In this document: piece after piece, positions 3,027-20,537 of the stretch
Layout: the number at the start of each line of letters is the position of its first letter
How positions within the stretch are numbered: position 1 is the first letter of the stretch
NCBI GenBank assembly: GCA_015064095.1
Contig: SVSW01000003.1
Location: 4,882 to 68,881 of the forward strand
Source: Oscillospiraceae bacterium
GTDB taxonomy: Bacteria; Bacillota; Clostridia; Oscillospirales; CAG-272
Length of the DNA: 64,000 nt
Direction: 5' to 3'
Made by a program: the position numbers and the translations under genes
The notes under the pieces: model-generated
Seen by the model: only the letters and a program-made list of their open reading frames with translations
Told to the model about the DNA's origin: nothing
Database searches by the model: none

Positions 3027-4756
3027 ATAGACGCACCTCCCATCTGCGAGTCGCAGATCTCGCGGTATATCTCGCAAGCTGCGTAAAGCTCTTCATGAGA
3101 GCCGACTCCGACAGGCTCTCCGCCGTCAAGCACGAGTATTTGGTCGCAACCCCGCACACTTACGGCGCGCTGAGAAATAACGAGCACCGAAGGAGCAAAA
3201 TCAAGCTCCGATATGGCGCGAAGCAGATTTGCCTCCGTCAGTTGATCAAGCGCCGATGAGCTATTGTCAAGTATGAGTATCTCGGGGCGGCGCACAAGTG
3301 CGCGCGCGATGGTCAGCCGCTGGCGCTGACCTCCCGAAAGATTTCTTCCGTTCTGCCCCACCTCAATATCGAGCGTGTTTTCCTCACCGGATTTGATCTC
3401 CTTCAACTGTGCTGCATTGAGAGCCGCCATTATTTCCTCGTCCGTCGCATCGGGCTTGCCCCATTTAATATTATCGCGCACCGTGCCGCGGAAAAGCTCA
3501 ACATTTTGCGCAACGTATCCGATCCTCGAACGAAGCTCGGTCTCCCCGTATTCACGTACATTCCGTCCGTTAACAAGTACCTCCCCGCCCGTTGCATCAT
3601 AAAAGCGCGGAATAAGCGCAGCAAGTGTGGTCTTACCCGATCCCGTGCCACCGATAACGCCTAACTTTTGACCTTTTTTGAGTGTAATATTTATGTTTTT
3701 GAGCGCATCGCCAGACGCGCCGGCATATCTGAAATCAACGTCACGAAGCGAAAGCACGGGTGCGTTCGCATCGACCGTATTTGTGCCGGCAACCTTAAGC
3801 ATATCCGCATTTTCGTCCATGACCGCGGAAATTCTTCCGGCGCAAGCGATAGATTTTGTTACCGTGATGATCAGGTTAGCCATTTTGATAAGCTCAACGA
3901 GGATCTGCGTCATGTAATTGTAAAGTGCGATCATCTGTCCCTGTGTGAGAAGTCCCGTGTCAACTCCGTCCGCACTGTAATAAAGGAGCGCGATTATCGC
4001 GATATTTATAATTACATAGGTCAAAGGATTGAGAAGTCCCGAGATGCGGCCCGCAACGATCTGCATTTTCGTCAGGCTTTCGGAGCGCTCGGCAAACTCG
4101 GCATTTTCGTTATCCTCCATGCAAAACGCGCGGAGCACGCGCGCGCCCGCAAGATTTGAGCTGACCTTACCCGTCACCGCATCGAGCTTCGTTCGCGATT
4201 TTCTGTATAGCGGTACTCCCGCAGTCAAAATTATAAAAACCACAACGAGCAAAACGGGGATCGTTACGGCAAAAACCGCAGCCGTGGCAGGGGCTGCCGC
4301 ACCAACGGCAAAAGTCATGATCATCGCACCGAAAACGACAAAGGGCGAGCGCAAAAGTAGGCGCAAAGTGAGATTTATGCCCGTCTGCACCTGGTTTATA
4401 TCGCTTGTCATTCTCGTGATAAGTGTTGGAGTTCCTATTCTGTCAAGCTGAGGAAAAGATAGTGTCTGAATTTTCTCAAAAAGAGCTGAGCGCAGCTCTG
4501 CCGATGCACCGCAAGCGGCTTTTGCGGCAAAATACTGTGCAGTAAGCGCGCAAGCAAGCCCTGCTGCTCCCATAATGATAAGGAGCAAGCACATTTTAAC
4601 TATGTAACTCCTATCTCCGTTCGCAATACCGATATCGGCAATAGACGCAACAACAAGCGGCACGGAAAGCTCGAGCACCGCCTCAAACAGTTTGAATAGC
4701 GGACCGATTATTGCGTGCACGCGGTAATTTTTAAGATATTTCAATACTTTCTTCAT
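3023..4756 (-). CDS. ABC exporter, fused permease/ATPase subunit (heterodimer partner 1)
   Basis: 577 aa. TM domain plus Walker A GGTGSGKTT, LSGGQRQR and ILILDNSSSALD. Confidence 0.85.
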   Translation of the reverse strand: MKKVLKYLKNYRVHAIIGPLFKLFEAVLELSVPLVVASIADIGIANGDRSYIVKMCLLLIIMGAAGLACALTAQYFAAKAACGASAELRSALFEKIQTLSFPQLDRIGTPTLITRMTSDINQVQTGINLTLRLLLRSPFVVFGAMIMTFAVGAAAPATAAVFAVTIPVLLVVVFIILTAGVPLYRKSRTKLDAVTGKVSSNLAGARVLRAFCMEDNENAEFAERSESLTKMQIVAGRISGLLNPLTYVIINIAIIALLYYSADGVDTGLLTQGQMIALYNYMTQILVELIKMANLIITVTKSIACAGRISAVMDENADMLKVAGTNTVDANAPVLSLRDVDFRYAGASGDALKNINITLKKGQKLGVIGGTGSGKTTLAALIPRFYDATGGEVLVNGRNVREYGETELRSRIGYVAQNVELFRGTVRDNIKWGKPDATDEEIMAALNAAQLKEIKSGEENTLDIEVGQNGRNLSGGQRQRLTIARALVRRPEILILDNSSSALDQLTEANLLRAISELDFAPSVLVISQRAVSVRGCDQILVLDGGEPVGVGSHEELYAACEIYREICDSQMGGASI

Positions 4757-5364: not shown

Positions 5365-6342
5365 TCAGGAATTTCTGATCTTTTGCGCGCGCACATCAAC
5401 GCCGCGGAATACAAGAGGATAATATTCACCGAACATACGGCTCGTTATTCTGTCACTATAACGCTCTCGAAGCTCCTTTTGAGTAAGATTCGTGCTGATA
5501 ACGGTCGGCCTGCCGAGATTCATTCTTGTATTTATCAAATTGTAAAGAGTTGAAACGGTAAACTGGTTGGTCATCTCCGTTCCAAGATCGTCAATGATCA
5601 AAAGATCGCAATCAAAGCAACGCTCGGGCGATTCCTGTATATATGATGCCGTGCGTCCGAATTGCGCAAATTCAAAACCCGAGAACATATTGATCGCGCT
5701 GACATAATAAACATCGTAACCGCGTTCGATAACCGTTTTTGCAAGAGCGCTTGAAAGATGCGTTTTACCAAGTCCCGTGCCGCCCATAAGGAGCAGATTG
5801 GGGGCGCCTTTGCCGCGGAAGGTATGCGCATAATTTTTCATATATTCAAGCACCATCGACATCATCGAATGTGCTTCGGCGTTTGATTTGTAATAATCAA
5901 GCGAAAAGCTCTCAAAGGTCTGCGTGCGGAGAAGATTTGCAATACCCGACGACTCATAGCCGGCGAGTATCAGCTCTCGGCGCATACACTCACACATATA
6001 CCCGTCGCAAAATCCCGAATCCATACACTTTTCACATTCGTATTTTACGTCGGTATAATCCTCGGGATAACCGGCGGCTGCGAGCATTTCCCTTTTCTTT
6101 TTTTGCAAAAGCTCGTTTTCTCGGCGTATCTCTGCCACCTTTTCGGCACAGTTCTCACCTGCAGAAAGCGCTGCCGCCATGACCTTCATACCAACGGACG
6201 AAAGCTCCGCATTTATCTCGGCAAGACCCGGAATATGAGCCTCGGCATCAGCACGTCGCGCGTCTGCTGCGGCGTGGGCGTCCTTGTATTTATTTTCGTA
6301 CGCCTCGCGTATTCGGGCGTAGTTTTCTTTATTGTAGCCCAT
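5365..6342 (-). CDS. dnaI: Replicative helicase loader, DnaI/DnaC family AAA+ ATPase
   Basis: Walker A GGTGLGKTHL and Walker B LLIIDDLGTE. The Cys-rich N-terminal segment CEKCMDSGFCDGYMCEC fits the DnaI zinc module. Sits 2 nt downstream of the DnaD-domain gene. Confidence 0.75.
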   Translation of the reverse strand: MGYNKENYARIREAYENKYKDAHAAADARRADAEAHIPGLAEINAELSSVGMKVMAAALSAGENCAEKVAEIRRENELLQKKKREMLAAAGYPEDYTDVKYECEKCMDSGFCDGYMCECMRRELILAGYESSGIANLLRTQTFESFSLDYYKSNAEAHSMMSMVLEYMKNYAHTFRGKGAPNLLLMGGTGLGKTHLSSALAKTVIERGYDVYYVSAINMFSGFEFAQFGRTASYIQESPERCFDCDLLIIDDLGTEMTNQFTVSTLYNLINTRMNLGRPTVISTNLTQKELRERYSDRITSRMFGEYYPLVFRGVDVRAQKIRNS

Positions 6343-7295: not shown

Positions 7296-7972
7296 TTCTT
7301 TTTGTCCTTAATATTTTTCTCTCTTACACCGTAGCAAAGCGTCATAAGCGAGTCTCCGAGATAAACGTCTTCAAAAACCATATTCCGTCCTGTTTTTATC
7401 TCTTTACCCGTAAAGTTCCAAATGCCCTTTATGCCTGCCGCAGAAAGCCTTTCAACTTCGTCGTCGGCAACCTCTTTCGGTAATGCCAGCACTGCAATAT
7501 CTATTCTCTTATCGGAGCAAAAGTCTTTGAGATCCTTCATGTCATATACTTTAACACCGCCGAATTCTTTGCCGATGACCTCGTCAGATATATCGAACAT
7601 GGCAACAACATCAACGCCGCGGCGTTCAAACATACGGGTTCCGACGAGCGCGCGCCCGAGGTTGCCCGCTCCTATTATGATCGCAGAAAAATTATCCGCA
7701 ACGCCGAGTATCTCACTGATCTTTGCAAAAAGATAGTTGACATTGTAGCCGTATCCCTGCTGACCGAAGCCTCCGAAGCAATTAAGATCCTGGCGTATCT
7801 GCGACGCCGTGACATTCATAAGCTTTGAAAGCTCACCGGAGCTGATGCGTGACTGACCGGCACGTATAAGCTCACGCAGGTATCTGTAATACCTTGGAAG
7901 ACGGCGAATAACCGCAGGAGAAACATTTTCCACACGGTCAATTATTTCTTTATTAAAAATGTCTTCGTTCAT
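7292..7972 (-). CDS. rex: Redox-sensing transcriptional repressor Rex
   Basis: PAVIRRLPRYYRYLREL winged-helix N-terminus and Rossmann motif IIIGAGNLGRAL. Start set at ATG 7972 (MNEDIF), which has an upstream GAGGAAAGGG SD. The stop overlaps the dnaD-like start (ATGA). Confidence 0.85.
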   Translation of the reverse strand: MNEDIFNKEIIDRVENVSPAVIRRLPRYYRYLRELIRAGQSRISSGELSKLMNVTASQIRQDLNCFGGFGQQGYGYNVNYLFAKISEILGVADNFSAIIIGAGNLGRALVGTRMFERRGVDVVAMFDISDEVIGKEFGGVKVYDMKDLKDFCSDKRIDIAVLALPKEVADDEVERLSAAGIKGIWNFTGKEIKTGRNMVFEDVYLGDSLMTLCYGVREKNIKDKKK

Positions 7973-15845: not shown

Positions 15846-15934
15846 GGAGAGATATCGAAGTGGTCATAACGGGGCTGACTCGAAATCAGTTTGGGAGCAA
15901 TCCCACGTGGGTTCGAATCCCACTCTCTCCGCCA
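15846..15934 (+). tRNA. tRNA-Ser (anticodon CGA)
   Basis: Acceptor GGAGAGA/TCTCTCC, anticodon loop CU-CGA-AA, long variable arm TGGGA-GCAA-TCCCA, T-arm GTGGG-TTCGAAT-CCCAC, discriminator G and encoded CCA. Confidence 0.9.
15876..15931 (+). repeat. Left 56-nt direct repeat (att-like), inside the intact tRNA-Ser
   Basis: 55/56 identical to 19566-19621. Runs from the anticodon stem to the discriminator base. Confidence 0.9.
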
Positions 15935-16117: not shown

Positions 16118-16348
16118 GTGTGTGATGATTCGTTGAGATTTAATACACCGGAAGGTGTTGTTAGCAAAAACGATATACATTCAATTTCCATTACACACCA
16201 TTGGTCTTACGATGAATTGAAACTCAAAACTCTGCACGGAATGTGCTTTACTTCGGAAATTGAAAATGCGTCAATTTTCGTAATCGATAACGGTTACAGA
16301 AAGAGATATCCACTATCCAAATTAGACTACATTCAATTTGGAAACTGA
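16118..16348 (+). CDS. Small hypothetical ORF, possibly a gene remnant
   Basis: 76 codons from a GTG with no clear SD. The only in-frame ATG is at codon 42. Ends 15 nt before the methyltransferase gene. Confidence 0.3.
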   Translation: MCDDSLRFNTPEGVVSKNDIHSISITHHWSYDELKLKTLHGMCFTSEIENASIFVIDNGYRKRYPLSKLDYIQFGN

Positions 16349-16363
16349 CAAAAGGAGACGGCT

Positions 16364-17647
16364 ATGCTCGAAAGAATGAGTGAATTTTTTGAAAAGCGTT
16401 TGAATGGTTATGATGAGCATATGCTGACAAATATTAAGTCGGCGCGGGAGTTTTATACGTTCACGGCGGAGTGTTTACCCAAGGCGAACGGTTGCCGTGT
16501 GCTTGACTTAGGCTGTGGCACGGGGCTGGAGCTTGAATATTATTTTTCGCTGAATTCTACGGCGCGTGTGACGGGCATTGATCTCTCGCAAGGTATGCTC
16601 GATGCGCTCTCGGCAAAGTTTGAGAACAAGGACATCACGCTTGTTTGTGATTCTTATTTTGCTGTACCTTTGGGCGAGAACGTATTTGACTCGGCCGTAT
16701 CGGTAGAGTCCTTGCATCACTTCACGCAGAAAGAAAAAATACCGCTTTACGAGAAGCTTTGTAAAGCGATAAAAAACGGCGGATATTTTATATTGACCGA
16801 CTATTTTGCTCTGTCTGACGAAGAGGAGCAGATGCATCGAGATACACTTATTGCGCTCAAAAATGAGCAAGGCATCACGGATAGCGAGTTCTATCATTAC
16901 GACACACCGCTAACCGTAGCACACGAGGTTGAGGCGCTTATGGCGGCAGGATTTTCCTCTGTTGATGTGCTTAAAAATTGGGGTGCAACCTATACGCTAC
17001 GCGCTTCGAGAAACAAGGTTTTGAACATTACGAACGGTGATTGCTTCAACGATTATTTTCTATCAAAGTTTGGCGGCGAGGCTGTTCCTTTTTGCGAGGC
17101 GATGATGGACGGTGATACGATATCGGACATCTATTCGGGTGAGTTTATCGAATTGCGTTCAAAGGCGCTTGGCGTGAGTGCCAAGGAATACAAGTCAAAG
17201 ATGCACGTGCAAACCGCGCCTCTTGAGAATTACTCCGAGCTTCGTTTGTGGTTCGGCAAGGATACCTTCTGCCAGACAAATCTGCTCACGCTTCTCGCTT
17301 ATTTGAAGCAGATCGAATACGGTGGGCAGGTCTTTCTCAATTACATTGACGACGAAAACTTCGAGGTGCTTGAGGAGAATATCTCTGTAACGCTTGACTC
17401 GTATAAAAGGATTTACGAAGATATCCTTATAACAAAAAAGCACCCGACAAACTTGGGTGTTCTTGATGCCGAGGGAATAGAATTGTATTTTGATTATCTC
17501 TCTGATACCGGAGCGCTTGCGCAACTTGTGAGAGAAAATTCCGACAAGGATGATTTGAATCTTGTCTGCCTTTTGCTTGAAAACTCAAAGGCATACGGAT
17601 TGTCGGATATACAGGCGGAAATGCTGATTAGAAAATATCGTATTTAG
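16364..17647 (+). CDS. Class I SAM-dependent methyltransferase fused to a DUF1835-like C-terminal domain
   Basis: N-terminal half has motif I VLDLGCGTGLE and post-I/II elements (VTGIDLS, GGYFILTDY). The C-terminal ~210 aa (LNITNGDCF..., LRLWFGKDTFCQTNLL) resembles DUF1835 as I recall it. SD AAGGAG lies upstream. Confidence 0.7.
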   Translation: MLERMSEFFEKRLNGYDEHMLTNIKSAREFYTFTAECLPKANGCRVLDLGCGTGLELEYYFSLNSTARVTGIDLSQGMLDALSAKFENKDITLVCDSYFAVPLGENVFDSAVSVESLHHFTQKEKIPLYEKLCKAIKNGGYFILTDYFALSDEEEQMHRDTLIALKNEQGITDSEFYHYDTPLTVAHEVEALMAAGFSSVDVLKNWGATYTLRASRNKVLNITNGDCFNDYFLSKFGGEAVPFCEAMMDGDTISDIYSGEFIELRSKALGVSAKEYKSKMHVQTAPLENYSELRLWFGKDTFCQTNLLTLLAYLKQIEYGGQVFLNYIDDENFEVLEENISVTLDSYKRIYEDILITKKHPTNLGVLDAEGIELYFDYLSDTGALAQLVRENSDKDDLNLVCLLLENSKAYGLSDIQAEMLIRKYRI

Positions 17648-17677
17648 TGACGTCCCAAACTCGTTTTCTATCACTTT
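17646..17677 (+). repeat. Left copy of a 32-nt imperfect direct repeat bracketing the HTH / acidic-protein cassette
   Basis: AGTGACGTCCCAAACTCGTTTTCTATCACTTT; 29/32 identical to 19424-19455. Confidence 0.8.
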
Positions 17678-17745
17678 CCCGAAAAAATGAGAGCTTATCA
17701 CAGAAGGACGGAAAAGTCCAGCGGAATTTGAAAACAAATAAAATT

Positions 17746-17777
17746 GCCGCTGAGGAATCTTACGAAACCTCAGCGGC
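17746..17777. terminator. Bidirectional terminator between convergent islet genes
   Basis: GCCGCTGAGG / CCTCAGCGGC 10-bp stem with a 12-nt loop. TTT follows on plus; AATTTTATTT follows on minus. Confidence 0.6.
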
Positions 17778-17795: not shown

Positions 17796-17972
17796 TCAAT
17801 CATCTTCCTCGTCTTCTCGACGCCGTCTTTCTTCCTCTTCTTCCTCTTCGCGCTCACGACGATATTCGCTATCGTCCCAGTTATCTACATATTCTCCGCG
17901 TGTCCAACTATATCCGCCTTTATCTATATCTTCGTATTCACCCGAATCGTAATTATAGCACCATTTTGACAT
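17796..17972 (-). CDS. 58-aa aromatic-rich, hyper-acidic mini-protein
   Basis: ATG at 17972 preceded by GGAGGAG (17980-17987), which is embedded in the end of the upstream gene. Sequence: MSKWCYNYDSGEYEDIDKGGYSWTRGEYVDNWDDSEYRREREEEEEEERRRREDEEDD. Confidence 0.5.
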   Translation of the reverse strand: MSKWCYNYDSGEYEDIDKGGYSWTRGEYVDNWDDSEYRREREEEEEEERRRREDEEDD

Positions 17973-17974
17973 AA

Positions 17975-19225
17975 TCAAAGCTCCTCCAAGTGATCTTTCA
18001 AATTTTTGATTTTATTGTAGGATTCATTTAACTCTTCAATTAAATGTTTGATAATTGGATCTTTTGAATTTTTTGTAGTGTGAGCAATATTAGTGATAAG
18101 TCCGTATGGAACAGACTTGAATTCTGCGGACGTATAGCAACCGCAGAAGCTCACAATATTATCAACATCTGAAAATTTCAAATCATCTTGGCAATGTCTG
18201 ATCCACAATGATTGCCCATATTCCGAAGAATACCAATCATCGTTCTTCAAATTTTTTATCAATTTACAAAGTTTATCATATGTAGTTTTATTGTGTTTAA
18301 TAAGCTTTTTGATAGCGGTTTCCGTAAATTGAGACTTTTCCTCTATGATAAGATCTAACAATTCTGTAATAAACGGATATATAAATGTGTGTTTACTGTC
18401 TCTTCCGTCTTTGTATCTAACTCTGTCTCTGATCTCAAATTCGTCGGTGAAATAATCGAGCACTTCATTACTTGACTTTGAAATATGACGAACCATTCTC
18501 TCATTGTATGATTCATAAAAATCAGTCCCATGGAAATTCAAATAATGAATGAAATAGTACATACCGGTAGTTTCACGTGCTCTTAATGATTCCATCATTT
18601 TAAGGTCGTTATGGTCTGCAGCAAGAGCTATCAAATTCAAGCGCAACTCATCTTCTTCATTTAATTTTGCTTGAAGACCGTAATCTGTAAAGCTTCTATG
18701 CCGTCTCTCAATAGATGTACCTGCGCCAAAGTTGATAACGTAATCATTGTCTTTTCTGCTATCAAACCAAATGTACTCTTTATCCATTAAATATTTTAAA
18801 AGCTCGTAATTGCGAAATTCCAAAGCATAATCAAGAATTGTTTTGCAATACTCATCTTGGTTAAGTATGAGTTTATCCTCACGATTGATAAAAGCTTCCC
18901 ATTCGGCAGGATCCTTTGAAAAGGCTATGGCGTAATTCGTTACACGTTTTGCTTGTGGAACACTATATTCTCCAGCGCTCAAAATCTGCTCACACGAAAC
19001 GCCAAGCAAATCCGTAAATATGGGAAGATCGTAGGTTTGTATAGCCTTTGCGCCTTTTGTGATTTGTGAGATACGGTTTGCCATTTTACGTATTTCCTCA
19101 TCGTTCATAACACCGCCAACAGCATTAATATATGCTTTGCAAAACTGTCGTTTGGAAGGATATTTTTTCTCTATCAGCTCCGAAAGATATGTCCCTATTT
19201 TTTGATTATTTTCATGTTTAAACAT
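17975..19225 (-). CDS. XRE-family HTH protein with a large uncharacterised C-terminal region
   Basis: Start at ATG 19225 (MFKHENNQ), 10 nt after GGAGG. Cro/C1-type HTH-like N-terminus (IGTYLSELIEKKYPSKRQFCKAY...LPIFTDLLGVSCEQIL). I could not assign the remaining ~330 aa; some helical-repeat flavour only. Confidence 0.7.
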   Translation of the reverse strand: MFKHENNQKIGTYLSELIEKKYPSKRQFCKAYINAVGGVMNDEEIRKMANRISQITKGAKAIQTYDLPIFTDLLGVSCEQILSAGEYSVPQAKRVTNYAIAFSKDPAEWEAFINREDKLILNQDEYCKTILDYALEFRNYELLKYLMDKEYIWFDSRKDNDYVINFGAGTSIERRHRSFTDYGLQAKLNEEDELRLNLIALAADHNDLKMMESLRARETTGMYYFIHYLNFHGTDFYESYNERMVRHISKSSNEVLDYFTDEFEIRDRVRYKDGRDSKHTFIYPFITELLDLIIEEKSQFTETAIKKLIKHNKTTYDKLCKLIKNLKNDDWYSSEYGQSLWIRHCQDDLKFSDVDNIVSFCGCYTSAEFKSVPYGLITNIAHTTKNSKDPIIKHLIEELNESYNKIKNLKDHLEEL

Positions 19226-19354
19226 GCTCCGAAAACCTCCGTTATTTGTTGGCTCTATTATATCACAAATCAAAATTCAATGATAGTCCACAATTTGCAC
19301 ACACAAAAAGCATATATTATTTTGCCGTGTGCATCGTGTATGCTTTTCGCATAC

Positions 19355-19383
19355 ATTGTAACATATCTTTGAGCTCTCGTCAA
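19355..19383 (-). promoter_or_regulatory. Sigma-A-type promoter for the HTH / acidic-protein operon
   Basis: On the minus strand: TTGACG (19383-19378), 17 nt, TACAAT (19360-19355) with TGT upstream. A second extended -10 (TGATATAAT) lies closer to the RBS. Confidence 0.55.
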
Positions 19384-19423
19384 GTATAAGTTTGAAATTT
19401 GTACAAATAATAAAAGCTGTTTC

Positions 19424-19455
19424 AGTGACGACCAAACCTCGTTTTCTATCACTTT
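19424..19455 (+). repeat. Right copy of the 32-nt imperfect direct repeat
   Basis: AGTGACGACCAAACCTCGTTTTCTATCACTTT; 29/32 identical to 17646-17677, 1778 bp away. Confidence 0.8.
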
Positions 19456-19565: not shown

Positions 19566-19621
19566 TGACTCGAAATCAGTTTGGGAGCAATCCCACGTGG
19601 CTTCGAATCCCACTCTCTCCG
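19566..19621 (+). pseudogene. Displaced 3' fragment of tRNA-Ser (right att-like repeat)
   Basis: Matches 15876-15931 except for G to C at 19601, which disrupts the T-stem. Lacks the first 30 nt of the tRNA and ends GACA instead of GCCA. Confidence 0.85.
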
Positions 19622-19623
19622 AC

Positions 19624-19658
19624 AAAGGGATTAAGTTGAACGCAACTTAATCCCTTTA
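19624..19658 (+). terminator. Hairpin after the tRNA fragment (probable original tRNA-Ser terminator)
   Basis: AAAGGGATTAAGTTG / CAACTTAATCCCTTT 15-bp stem with loop AACGC. Confidence 0.5.
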
Positions 19659-19660
19659 CT

Positions 19661-19688
19661 TTTTCACTATTCACTTTTCACTATTCAC
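19661..19688 (+). repeat. Tandem 2 x 14-nt repeat
   Basis: TTTTCACTATTCAC occurs twice in perfect tandem. Confidence 0.8.
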
Positions 19689-19784: not shown

Positions 19785-20537
19785 TCATTTACTTTTATCG
19801 GCAACGATGAATTGCGTTTTGGAAAACCGTTTTTTCGTGGAATCGGGAAAATCAAAGTCGCTGATAACGCAATCCACTCTGTCAAAATCAAAAAGTATAT
19901 GCTGCTCGGAATGCTCAAGCTTGTCATGGTCAACCAAATAATACACTTTATCTGCGTTTTTTGACATGACCTCATGCATCAGCATATAGTCGCTATCCCA
20001 AATTTTTCCGTCAGCGGTTACTCCGCCTGTGGAAAAGAATAGCTTATCGGCATGAAAATGCAAAAGATTACTGACCGTGATGTCCCCCAAAAGCATGTGC
20101 GGTTCTTCAAAAACGGGGCCTCCCAGGCAAATAACGCGAACTCCGTACTGACTTAAATAGGACACCAATGCCATATTGTTCGTTATGATCGTAACGTCCT
20201 TGATCGCCGCGATGTATTCTCCCATTATCTGCGTTGTGGTCGTGCTGTCAATAAATACCGTGTCGCCGGGGTTTATCATTTCGCATGCAATTCTTGCAAG
20301 GCGTCTTTTTTCCACGCGCATTTTATTATAGCGGTAGACTAACGGCACGCTCTTTTGCTCAACAACCTCCGCTCCCCCGTACGTGCGCTTTATCTGTCCT
20401 CGCTTTTCGAGCAGATTGAGATCTCGGTTAATGGTGGCGCTGCTGTAATGAAGGATGTCCATCAACTGCTTGACGGTTACGTAGCCTCGCGCGTTTAAAA
20501 TTTCAAGCAAGCTATCCAATCTCTCTTTTTGATACAT
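19785..20537 (-). CDS. DeoR/GlpR-family transcriptional regulator
   Basis: N-terminal HTH (RLDSLLEILNARGYVTVKQLMDILHYSSATINRDLNLLE) plus a sugar-phosphate-binding C-terminal domain; 250 aa. Confidence 0.85.
   Translation of the reverse strand: MYQKERLDSLLEILNARGYVTVKQLMDILHYSSATINRDLNLLEKRGQIKRTYGGAEVVEQKSVPLVYRYNKMRVEKRRLARIACEMINPGDTVFIDSTTTTQIMGEYIAAIKDVTIITNNMALVSYLSQYGVRVICLGGPVFEEPHMLLGDITVSNLLHFHADKLFFSTGGVTADGKIWDSDYMLMHEVMSKNADKVYYLVDHDKLEHSEQHILFDFDRVDCVISDFDFPDSTKKRFSKTQFIVADKSK

Follow-up and report, generated by a model that had tools for sequence, protein, structure and literature searches.

Many pairs of an XRE-family regulator and a small DUF397 protein (WhiJ/BldB-like, e.g. 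Scr1/Scr2) are known from Streptomyces; they were once proposed to be toxin-antitoxin (TA) systems and behave as regulators (PMC10364602; PMC6262351; PMC10294661). In acr-aca operons, a small protein (some Acrs are acidic DNA mimics) is co-transcribed with a helix-turn-helix (HTH) marker protein (PMC7648647). Here, we describe a two-gene cassette in which a 416-amino-acid (aa) XRE-type regulator is encoded immediately upstream of a 58-aa acidic mini-protein. It is located in a 64,000-nt stretch of the genome of a gut or rumen member of the Clostridia, an Oscillospiraceae bacterium (GenBank assembly GCA_015064095.1, contig SVSW01000003.1, positions 4,882 to 68,881 of the forward strand), hereafter the window, i.e., the whole stretch of DNA that was analysed; coordinates are those of the window, and homologous loci are numbered with the prefix L. 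The two-gene unit is firmly supported as a conserved, mobile, bicistronic cassette. It is built from two undescribed families and appears to combine an autoregulated XRE regulator with a small partner. Both families are large, lack a name, a Pfam model and any structural relative, and come from Clostridia sampled in the guts of humans, mice, chickens and ruminants.

The XRE-DUF397 pairs share with this locus the order of an XRE regulator immediately followed by a small co-transcribed protein. Unlike them, the 58-aa protein contains no DUF397 domain or other Pfam family and comes from a different phylum, the regulator has additional ankyrin-like repeats and a new C-terminal domain, and the mini-protein also pairs with nucleases, relaxases and other genes. 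Aca proteins repress their own operon via an inverted repeat at the promoter. The acr-aca operons resemble the cassette in regulatory logic, in the presence of variable cargo beside a conserved regulator and in their link to mobile elements. However, the gene order is reversed, the regulator described here is a 416-aa protein with sensor-like domains and not a minimal HTH, and many copies of the cassette occur in plain chromosomal contexts; the likeness is one of regulatory logic only. Regulators of the RRNPP type (ComR, PrgX, PlcR, AimR) are similar in that an XRE HTH at the N-terminus precedes a large domain of helical repeats and a small open reading frame (ORF) lies directly downstream, but the repeats of the present regulator are ankyrin-like and are followed by an alpha/beta domain, and its small partner is not a secreted peptide precursor.

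Like the DNA mimics Ocr, ArdA and small phage inhibitors, the mini-protein is small, strongly acidic and borne on mobile elements, being found near relaxases and on viral contigs, and its predicted fold has a high negative charge density; ArdA itself resides on conjugative elements (PMC2731889). It differs from these mimics in having no sequence or fold similarity to them, and is predicted to consist of an aromatic beta-hairpin and a charged helix rich in Glu and Arg. Nuclease-inhibitor pairs include barnase-barstar and colicin HNH DNase-Im9. The likeness to these pairs lies in sister loci, where the mini-protein gene stands immediately after an RNase III-like or HNH gene, whereas the upstream gene in the window encodes a transcription factor; no barstar or Im homology turned up, no test aimed at it having been made.

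A preliminary description of the locus, made from the sequence alone, had recognised no named defence system, and this agrees with scans of both proteins against Pfam, NCBIfam, PHROGs and PADLOC, which gave no significant family for either. Specifically, neither protein matched a type II TA toxin or antitoxin family (Pfam, NCBIfam, PADLOC) or had a significant match among known anti-phage systems (PADLOC-DB v2), and literature searches on either protein family found no paper. The best PADLOC match of the large protein was PDC-M69A (E 0.014), confined to 37 residues of the HTH.

Organization of the operon

The cassette (~1.8 kb) is a minus-strand operon at 19383–17731, in which a promoter is followed by the 416-aa gene, the coupled 58-aa gene and a terminator. 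Its features are as follows.

19355–19383, minus strand: promoter P1, TTGACG-17-TACAAT with a TG extension (10 of 12 consensus matches in a consensus scan)
17975–19225, minus strand: gene 1, 416 aa, with ATG at 19225, stop codon at 17977–17975 and Shine-Dalgarno (SD) sequence GGAGG at 19240–19236
17981–17987, minus strand: SD sequence GGAGGAG of gene 2 (17987–17981), inside the last codons of gene 1
17796–17972, minus strand: gene 2, 58 aa, class A mini-protein, with ATG at 17972 and stop codon at 17798–17796
17731–17777, minus strand: intrinsic terminator (inverted repeat I3), GCCGCTGAGG, 12-nt loop, CCTCAGCGGC and a T-rich tract, with a 10-bp GC-rich stem

The stop codon of gene 1 and the ATG of gene 2 are separated by 2 nt, and the GC content of the operon is 0.30–0.39, compared with ~0.50 in its flanks. 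The preliminary description had presented the locus as a compact, AT-rich minus-strand transcription unit with a canonical promoter at 19383–19355 and coupled translation of its second gene, and all of these features are present. The gene pair is kept in many genomes, which is more than would be expected by chance.

The HTH-ankyrin regulator

A word-indexed search with the gene 1 product returned 1006 homologues at E ≤ 0.001. Among those listed, full-length proteins are mostly ~411–451 aa, a few are truncated at 310–370 aa, and none has an informative name. An exhaustive profile search retrieved at least 500 clusters at 50% identity (E ≤ 1e-3), with 232 at E ≤ 1e-30; cluster members are full-length proteins of ~390–470 aa that align from end to end, apart from about a dozen shorter fragments among the listed matches. 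The family was found in 55 genome loci, of which 53 are titled as Clostridia (Oscillospiraceae, Acutalibacteraceae, Ruminococcaceae, Lachnospiraceae) or Erysipelotrichia. The two off-pattern titles belong to metagenome-assembled genomes (L038, Muribaculum sp.; L043, "bacterium"). Cultured strains that encode the regulator include Acetatifactor muris DSM 23669 and Thomasclavelia saccharogumia DSM 17460. No close relative of the large protein was found in IMG/VR.

The AlphaFold2 (AF2) model of the protein has a predicted local distance difference test (pLDDT) score of 82.4 and a predicted template modelling (TM) score of 0.74, and is divided as follows.

Residues up to ~90: HTH region
Residues ~91–262: ankyrin-like repeats (modelled as helical repeats at ~97–260)
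Residues 263–416: alpha/beta domain with a long final helix

At the level of its modelled fold, the N-terminus is an XRE-type HTH, as had been proposed from a Cro/C1-like appearance of the sequence. Its helices (residues 7–21, 25–35, 42–56, 64–74 and 78–82) are modelled with pLDDT ~90, and local Foldseek matches to C.BclI, BldD, ClgR, lambda cI and ImmR have probabilities of 0.91–0.99 and target-normalised TM scores of 0.60–0.74. The corresponding E-values are only ~1 because the whole chain served as the query. No Pfam HTH profile (HTH_3, HTH_31, etc.) was matched at E ≤ 1 by the window protein or at E ≤ 0.01 by 43 relatives, probably because the domain carries an insertion. The HTH is both the most invariant segment of the family and the sole basic part of the large protein (pI 8.6).

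The remaining ~330 aa had been left without any assignment in the preliminary description. This holds for the alpha/beta C-terminal domain, which fits no family. The repeats, in contrast, appear to be ankyrin-like: Pfam Ank_2 was detected at E ≤ 0.01 in 33 of the 43 relatives, with a best E-value of 8.3e-07. The window protein itself scores 15.4 bits on Ank_2 against a curated cutoff of 27.3, and Ank-family domains appear in the precomputed Pfam column for five of 120 listed homologues. To our knowledge, ankyrin repeats are uncommon in bacterial transcription factors. A TPR profile was matched neither by the window protein nor by the 43 relatives. The best whole-chain Foldseek matches in the PDB were ComR, PrgX and PlcR, none of them significant (E 0.08–2, TM ≤ 0.28; for ComR and PrgX, E 0.08–0.3 and TM ≤ 0.26), and a sequence-profile search of the PDB with the large-protein family returned nothing. 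No natural fusion of the large and small proteins was present among the longer homologues, and BLAST found no similarity between the large protein and the RNase III-like protein, the 381-aa protein or the lipoprotein that are described below as other partners.

The motif FGAGTSI (residues 166–172; window 18710–18730) is invariant in all 43 aligned relatives. It is located in the sole disordered segment of the model (residues 156–180, pLDDT < 50), and the loop could be a ligand- or partner-binding site.

Operator-like elements in the leader

Three elements were recognised between promoter P1 and gene 1.

19338–19354, unstranded: operator-like palindrome O1, GTATGC-GAAAA-GCATAC (core TATGC-N5-GCATA at 19339–19353), directly downstream of the −10 box
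19294–19316, minus strand: second conserved block, TATATGCTTTTTGTGTGTGCAAA, half-site-like, one mismatch from the usual GTATGCAAA
19257–19265, minus strand: possible promoter P2, an extended −10 box (TGATATAAT) read from the sequence

Within the 64 kb of the window, the exact core TATGC-N5-GCATA is present only once. Each of 48 homologous loci has one exact copy of the palindrome, located 105–140 nt upstream of the start codon, and the proteins encoded at such loci share as little as ~35% identity with the window protein. Variant palindromes remain symmetric, e.g., TATGG-N5-CCATA in L058. The palindrome is directly adjoined by a TAnAAT box in 19 of 43 non-redundant upstream regions, 15 of which also have a −35 box. 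Since the palindrome abuts the −10 box, the transcription start would lie inside its left arm. The second element recurs as TAT[GA]C[AG]A at a fixed offset of 51–54 nt from the palindrome (~five helical turns) in 28 of the 43 upstream regions, and a TATAAT-like box in the same relative place as P2 is found in most homologous loci. From this conservation, we infer that a dimer of the regulator binds the operator and autoregulates the operon.

The leader had previously been described as a 5′ untranslated region with hairpins. A structured RNA was not borne out by folding (z = −1.12, with 33 of 200 shuffled sequences folding equally well), and no Rfam family was found in the leader. The palindromes are better read as conserved, operator-like DNA elements at the promoter. 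The invariant operator, the fixed architecture and the ankyrin-like repeats make the regulator a clean test case.

The acidic mini-protein

The gene 2 product contains 24 Asp or Glu residues among 58, has a net charge of −14.5 and a pI of 4.2, and carries nine Trp, Tyr or Phe residues within its first 37 positions, which bears out the acidic and aromatic composition noted earlier. Its family comprises 772 homologous clusters at 90% identity, all of them unnamed, and single variants were found on more than 100 assembled contigs. The class A pattern, to which it conforms, is WCxNYDSGEY...NWDDSEY followed by a helix rich in Glu and Arg. The preliminary description had staked its proposal on the small ORF being conserved and under purifying selection. 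The ORF is a real gene under purifying selection: it is kept in homologous loci, and over the first 37 codons in 19 loci, synonymous sites were saturated in 142 of 171 pairs, and the median ratio of nonsynonymous to synonymous substitutions (dN/dS) was ~0.08 where dS was measurable. All homologous mini-protein genes that were examined stand last, ahead of a terminator hairpin. An integron-like cassette was considered and rejected, as no conserved 3′ recombination element follows the mini-protein gene, where only unrelated terminators were seen.

The AF2 model (pLDDT 89.9) places strands at residues 2–7 and 12–17, short strands up to residue 32 and a charged helix at 35–56, so that the mini-protein is predicted to be a folded beta-hairpin domain with a charged helix. 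No fold match was obtained with Foldseek (best E 3.3 in the PDB and 2.0 in BFVD), a PDB profile search returned nothing (best E 4.4), there was no Pfam or PADLOC match, and no hydrophobic stretch is visible in the sequence. Most relatives end in ...DDW. In the window, codon 59 is TGA (17796–17798), whereas close relatives (...EDDW) have TGG (Trp) before the stop codon; given TGA in place of TGG, the window copy is without the common C-terminal Trp.

A second acidic mini-protein, class B, has the pattern FDYDDGDF...AIDSDGNMMMR...DMDSGD.HF.SSW. The two classes have a similar N-terminal motif, with an hhalign probability of 27% over 22 columns, and at this level homology between class A and class B is not established.

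Cargo of the regulator and partners of the mini-protein

The genes immediately downstream of the regulator were surveyed in 52 informative genome loci, with the following results.

Class A mini-protein: 16 loci
Class B acidic mini-protein: 14 loci
286-aa lipoprotein, +15 to +18 nt downstream: 5 loci
Zinc-ribbon membrane protein: 5 loci (two also with class B)
No recognised cargo: 13 loci

An acidic mini-protein is thus absent from 22 of the 52 loci. The converse survey, from the side of the class A mini-protein, covered 80 metagenome loci, a sample dominated by one human-gut lineage; here, partners were classified by BLAST comparison with a few references, and lineages were counted by visual inspection of the flanking sequences. 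The gene upstream encodes a 353-aa RNase III-like protein with two double-stranded RNA-binding domains (dsRBDs) in 62 of the 80 loci, ~45 of which look like one lineage (at least eight lineages overall), and an HTH-ankyrin regulator in eight. An operon of a 381-aa protein and a lipoprotein precedes class A on more than 100 contigs. Class A genes were also found after relaxases (Mob_Pre and, as judged by eye, MobA-type), after a small HNH gene, and after UzuA plus a 162-aa gene. Mini-protein residues 1–37 are 80–90% identical across these unrelated upstream partners. The regulator and the mini-protein therefore form a recurrent pair that is neither exclusive nor obligate, and the closed two-gene system envisaged in the preliminary description does not hold: the mini-protein also stands behind RNase III-like, HNH, relaxase and UzuA genes, and the regulator occurs with other cargo or with none. 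Cargo genes appear to have been exchanged within a limited group of lead genes.

Several of these settings are associated with mobile elements or defence genes. Mini-protein loci are also found beside UzuA and PDC-M38 defence genes, and the mini-protein is present on four IMG/VR contigs. On one of these (L081), the gene that precedes it lies next to holin-like genes and encodes a 369-aa protein distantly related to the regulator (hhalign probability 84%, E 7e-6), and in L077 the regulator/mini-protein pair lies beside prophage tail and lysis genes. In L090, the mini-protein gene has its own promoter-like sequence. The recurrence of the mini-protein as the last gene behind nucleases and relaxases, on viral contigs and in defence islands points to a portable module of mobile elements. 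Neither protein had a tblastn match among INPHARED phages or PLSDB plasmids.

The RNase III-like/mini-protein module (L065–L069, L080, L082 and many of L089–L163) encodes RNase III-like proteins of 353–380 aa with intact catalytic motifs, and the mini-protein gene begins ~20 nt downstream. Human-gut metagenome contigs frequently carry this module, which is also present in Butyrivibrio sp. AE3009, where it lies among Macro, ADP-ribosylglycohydrolase, HipA-like and PDC-M38 genes. No PADLOC match was obtained for this module.

Class B likewise occurs with more than one partner. Its most prevalent variants (L164–L169, around position 4001) follow an ORF of 87 to 103 aa in a variable region beside the gap gene; HNH_4 was seen in this ORF only at a faint level, in two loci. 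The mobile-element or defence genes in this region depend on the sample and include ParA/ParB, HsdM or AAA_15/21. The L164 island also contains an RNase III-like gene followed by a 55-aa ORF, which is a class A mini-protein.

A lipoprotein of 267 to 286 aa without a Pfam family recurs in two settings. It lies between the 381-aa protein and the mini-protein in L070–L072 and L075–L076, and directly after the HTH-ankyrin regulator in Lachnospiraceae (L026, L029, L030, L038 and L039).

Insertion and mobility

In the window, the cassette is contained within a 3.69-kb insertion that is bracketed by tRNA-Ser(CGA) at 15846–15934 and by a 59-nt partial copy of it. Within this insertion, a pair of direct repeats brackets the two-gene cassette exactly.

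19566–19624, plus strand: partial tRNA-Ser copy, the 3′ 59 nt of tRNA-Ser(CGA) at 97% identity, at the far end of the insertion
17643–17677, unstranded: left copy of the 35-nt direct repeat D3 (89% identity, spacing 1778 nt)
19421–19455, unstranded: right copy of D3

No integrase ORF is visible among the ORFs inside the insertion, which for this reason looks like a decayed or trans-mobilised islet. Direct repeats specific to each locus also surround the cassette elsewhere, with lengths of 53 nt in L022, 22 nt in L016 and 17 nt in L048, in addition to the 35 nt of the window; in a cross-locus null, flanking direct repeats reached a maximum of 13 nt. These locus-specific repeats suggest a duplicative insertion mechanism. 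The 53-nt repeat of L022 comprises the whole terminator hairpin and the −35 box. In L004, the cassette lies between inverted, REP-like, GC-rich repeats of ~100 nt (5594–5691 and 7488–7582), in which three consecutive arm pairs with 90–96% complementarity form an arrangement resembling a miniature inverted-repeat transposable element (MITE).

The preliminary description had placed the cassette on a tRNA islet. This is correct for the window and for a few close loci: the relatives in L001 and L010 (~85–88% DNA identity) likewise lie directly against a partial copy of tRNA-Ser, in neighbourhoods that differ. As a trait of the family at large, placement at tRNA genes was rejected, since most of the 54 loci scanned have no tRNA nearby. 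A tRNA lies within ~300 nt upstream of gene 1 only in L046 and L060; in L023 a tRNA is found ~450 nt downstream of the mini-protein gene, and in L001 tRNA-Ser is ~3.5 kb away. More distant copies of the cassette sit between unrelated housekeeping genes. L001 contains three tRNA-Ser copies in series, with different cargo between the copies.

Possible roles of the cassette

The explanation that we favour, although only tentatively and with confidence somewhat short of the halfway mark, is that an autoregulating regulator delivers the mini-protein as cargo, and that the mini-protein, as a polyanion, binds or inhibits a nucleic-acid-binding protein. The gene 1 product would be a transcription factor, probably a dimer, that binds TATGC-N5-GCATA at its own −10 box and the phased half-site ~52 nt downstream, and occupancy of these sites would autoregulate the operon. 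The ankyrin-like repeats and the C-terminal domain may form the signal-receiving part. The mini-protein would then be the translationally coupled output, folded and cytoplasmic, and might act by mimicking nucleic acid and thereby inhibiting a nucleic-acid-binding protein. This mechanism is suggested by the combination of variable cargo in a fixed slot, a mini-protein that is independent of its partner, and partners that bind or cut nucleic acids: most of those that could be identified do so (HTH, RNase III with two dsRBDs, HNH, relaxases). Because the mini-protein is unchanged across its upstream partners, its target is probably not specific to the upstream gene. The target might be shared by the bacterial hosts and the mobile elements (a defence nuclease, for example), or it might be the protein encoded upstream. 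The two ideas of the preliminary description, a DNA mimic and an antitoxin-like partner, are both plausible.

Several observations weigh against this explanation. The theme of nucleic-acid-related partners is broken by the operon of the 381-aa protein and lipoprotein, by a GNAT gene and by several proteins with no known function. Searches of Pfam, the PDB and BFVD revealed no known DNA mimic or inhibitor that resembles the mini-protein in sequence or fold. Neither protein matches sequenced phages or plasmids, and many cassettes lie between housekeeping genes. A 416-aa sensor-regulator would be unusual for a 58-aa cargo, and some regulator genes keep the operator without recognised cargo, from which it follows that the regulator probably has a role beyond cargo control. 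Finally, the tight translational coupling fits a direct complex of the two proteins equally well.

Such a complex is the basis of a different explanation, a partner switch of the WhiJ/BldB (XRE-DUF397) or SinR/SinI type, in which the mini-protein binds the ankyrin repeats or the basic HTH of the regulator and toggles its DNA binding, so closing a feedback loop whose real targets would be situated at other places in the genome. Translational coupling across a 2-nt gap or an ATGA overlap implies stoichiometric co-production, adjacency is retained across regulators of 35% to 90% identity, ankyrin repeats are protein-binding modules, and the basic HTH could attract a partner with a charge of −14.5; the regulators without recognised cargo also imply targets of their own. 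There is precedent in the Streptomyces XRE regulators, which often precede small DUF397 co-regulators (PMC10364602; PMC6262351; PMC10294661). However, the mini-protein domain is near-invariant whether it follows a regulator, an RNase III-like gene, an HNH gene or a relaxase, which argues that it is not tuned to the regulator; the 22 of 52 regulator loci without an acidic mini-protein, the lack of DUF397 or SinI similarity in the Pfam scan and the lack of a second operator copy within the 64-kb window point the same way, and we consider a partner switch doubtful, although it is the main rival. Quorum sensing of the RRNPP type, with an HTH-plus-repeat receptor and a pro-peptide gene directly downstream, would account for the HTH, the helical repeat domain of ~300 aa, the small downstream ORF and the identity of the best whole-chain Foldseek matches (ComR, PrgX, PlcR). 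Those matches fall short of significance, the repeats are ankyrin-like and not TPR, and the mini-protein also follows genes that do not encode receptors. As the small protein appears to be a folded, non-secreted and highly charged domain, with no hydrophobic or signal segment, this explanation is close to excluded.

The mini-protein could alternatively be linked to the gene upstream as an antidote, or not linked to it at all. As a TA, immunity or abortive-infection system, the locus would encode a harmful upstream protein that the mini-protein neutralises as barstar or Im9 does. Type II TA systems are typically encoded in autoregulated HTH operons, some mini-protein loci lie in defence islands or mobile-element hotspots, and elsewhere the mini-protein directly follows RNase III-like genes with intact catalytic motifs or small HNH genes; such a role fits the RNase III and HNH contexts better than the window locus. 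In the window, neither a toxin domain nor an enzymatic one was recognised in the large protein, which also lacks a PADLOC match, and the HTH sits on this protein and not on the small one. Regulators without a recognised partner keep their operator, which would be unexpected for a toxin lacking its antitoxin, and specific neutralisation of several unrelated effectors by a single invariant mini-domain is improbable. Altogether, we judge an antidote role to be very unlikely. A mini-protein with, for example, a Ca2+-binding or accessory function might instead insert at operon ends for the sake of transcription, with no link to the regulator. This would explain why at least eight unrelated gene families occur upstream of it, why it is always the terminal gene with a strong SD sequence of its own, and why the L090 copy has a promoter-like sequence; a DxDxDG-like or IDxDG motif that appears common to classes A and B would suit such a function. 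Yet the linkage to the regulator is recurrent and deep (30 genome loci), two acidic classes occupy the same slot, start and stop codons overlap, and no conserved flanking element was found that would explain cassette-like insertion. Hitchhiking of this kind seems to us quite unlikely, though less so than an antidote role.

The favoured explanation, that of a regulator delivering a polyanionic inhibitor, has a broader form, in which classes A and B together are a new family of broad-acting, nucleic-acid-mimic inhibitors with anti-defence or immunity functions, moved about as terminal cargo between the nuclease, relaxase and regulator operons of mobile elements in gut Clostridia. The HTH-ankyrin protein would be a dedicated sensor-regulator of a new class that releases this cargo on a specific cue, and the cassette would be a defence or counter-defence module unlike any described. 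We regard this broader form as unlikely, albeit not strongly so. Should mimicry of nucleic acids or inhibition of nucleases be confirmed for the mini-protein, the anti-defence and immunity repertoire would gain a new and very small scaffold, and a set of unannotated operons of gut Firmicutes would be explained.

Other features of the insertion and its flanks

The left half of the insertion (16118–17647, plus strand) contains a 76-aa ORF followed by a gene for a 427-aa protein. The N-terminal ~160 residues of this protein match S-adenosylmethionine (SAM)-methyltransferase profiles (E ~1e-16) and PADLOC mad2 (E 2.7e-14), and its C-terminal ~220 aa matched no family in the profile scans. This methyltransferase-domain protein is absent from the other cassette loci examined. 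The genes that flank the insertion resemble ordinary metabolic and regulatory genes, as judged by eye. At 19661–19688, just past the partial tRNA copy and upstream of a DeoR-family gene at 19785–20537, TTTTCACTATTCAC is duplicated perfectly in tandem.

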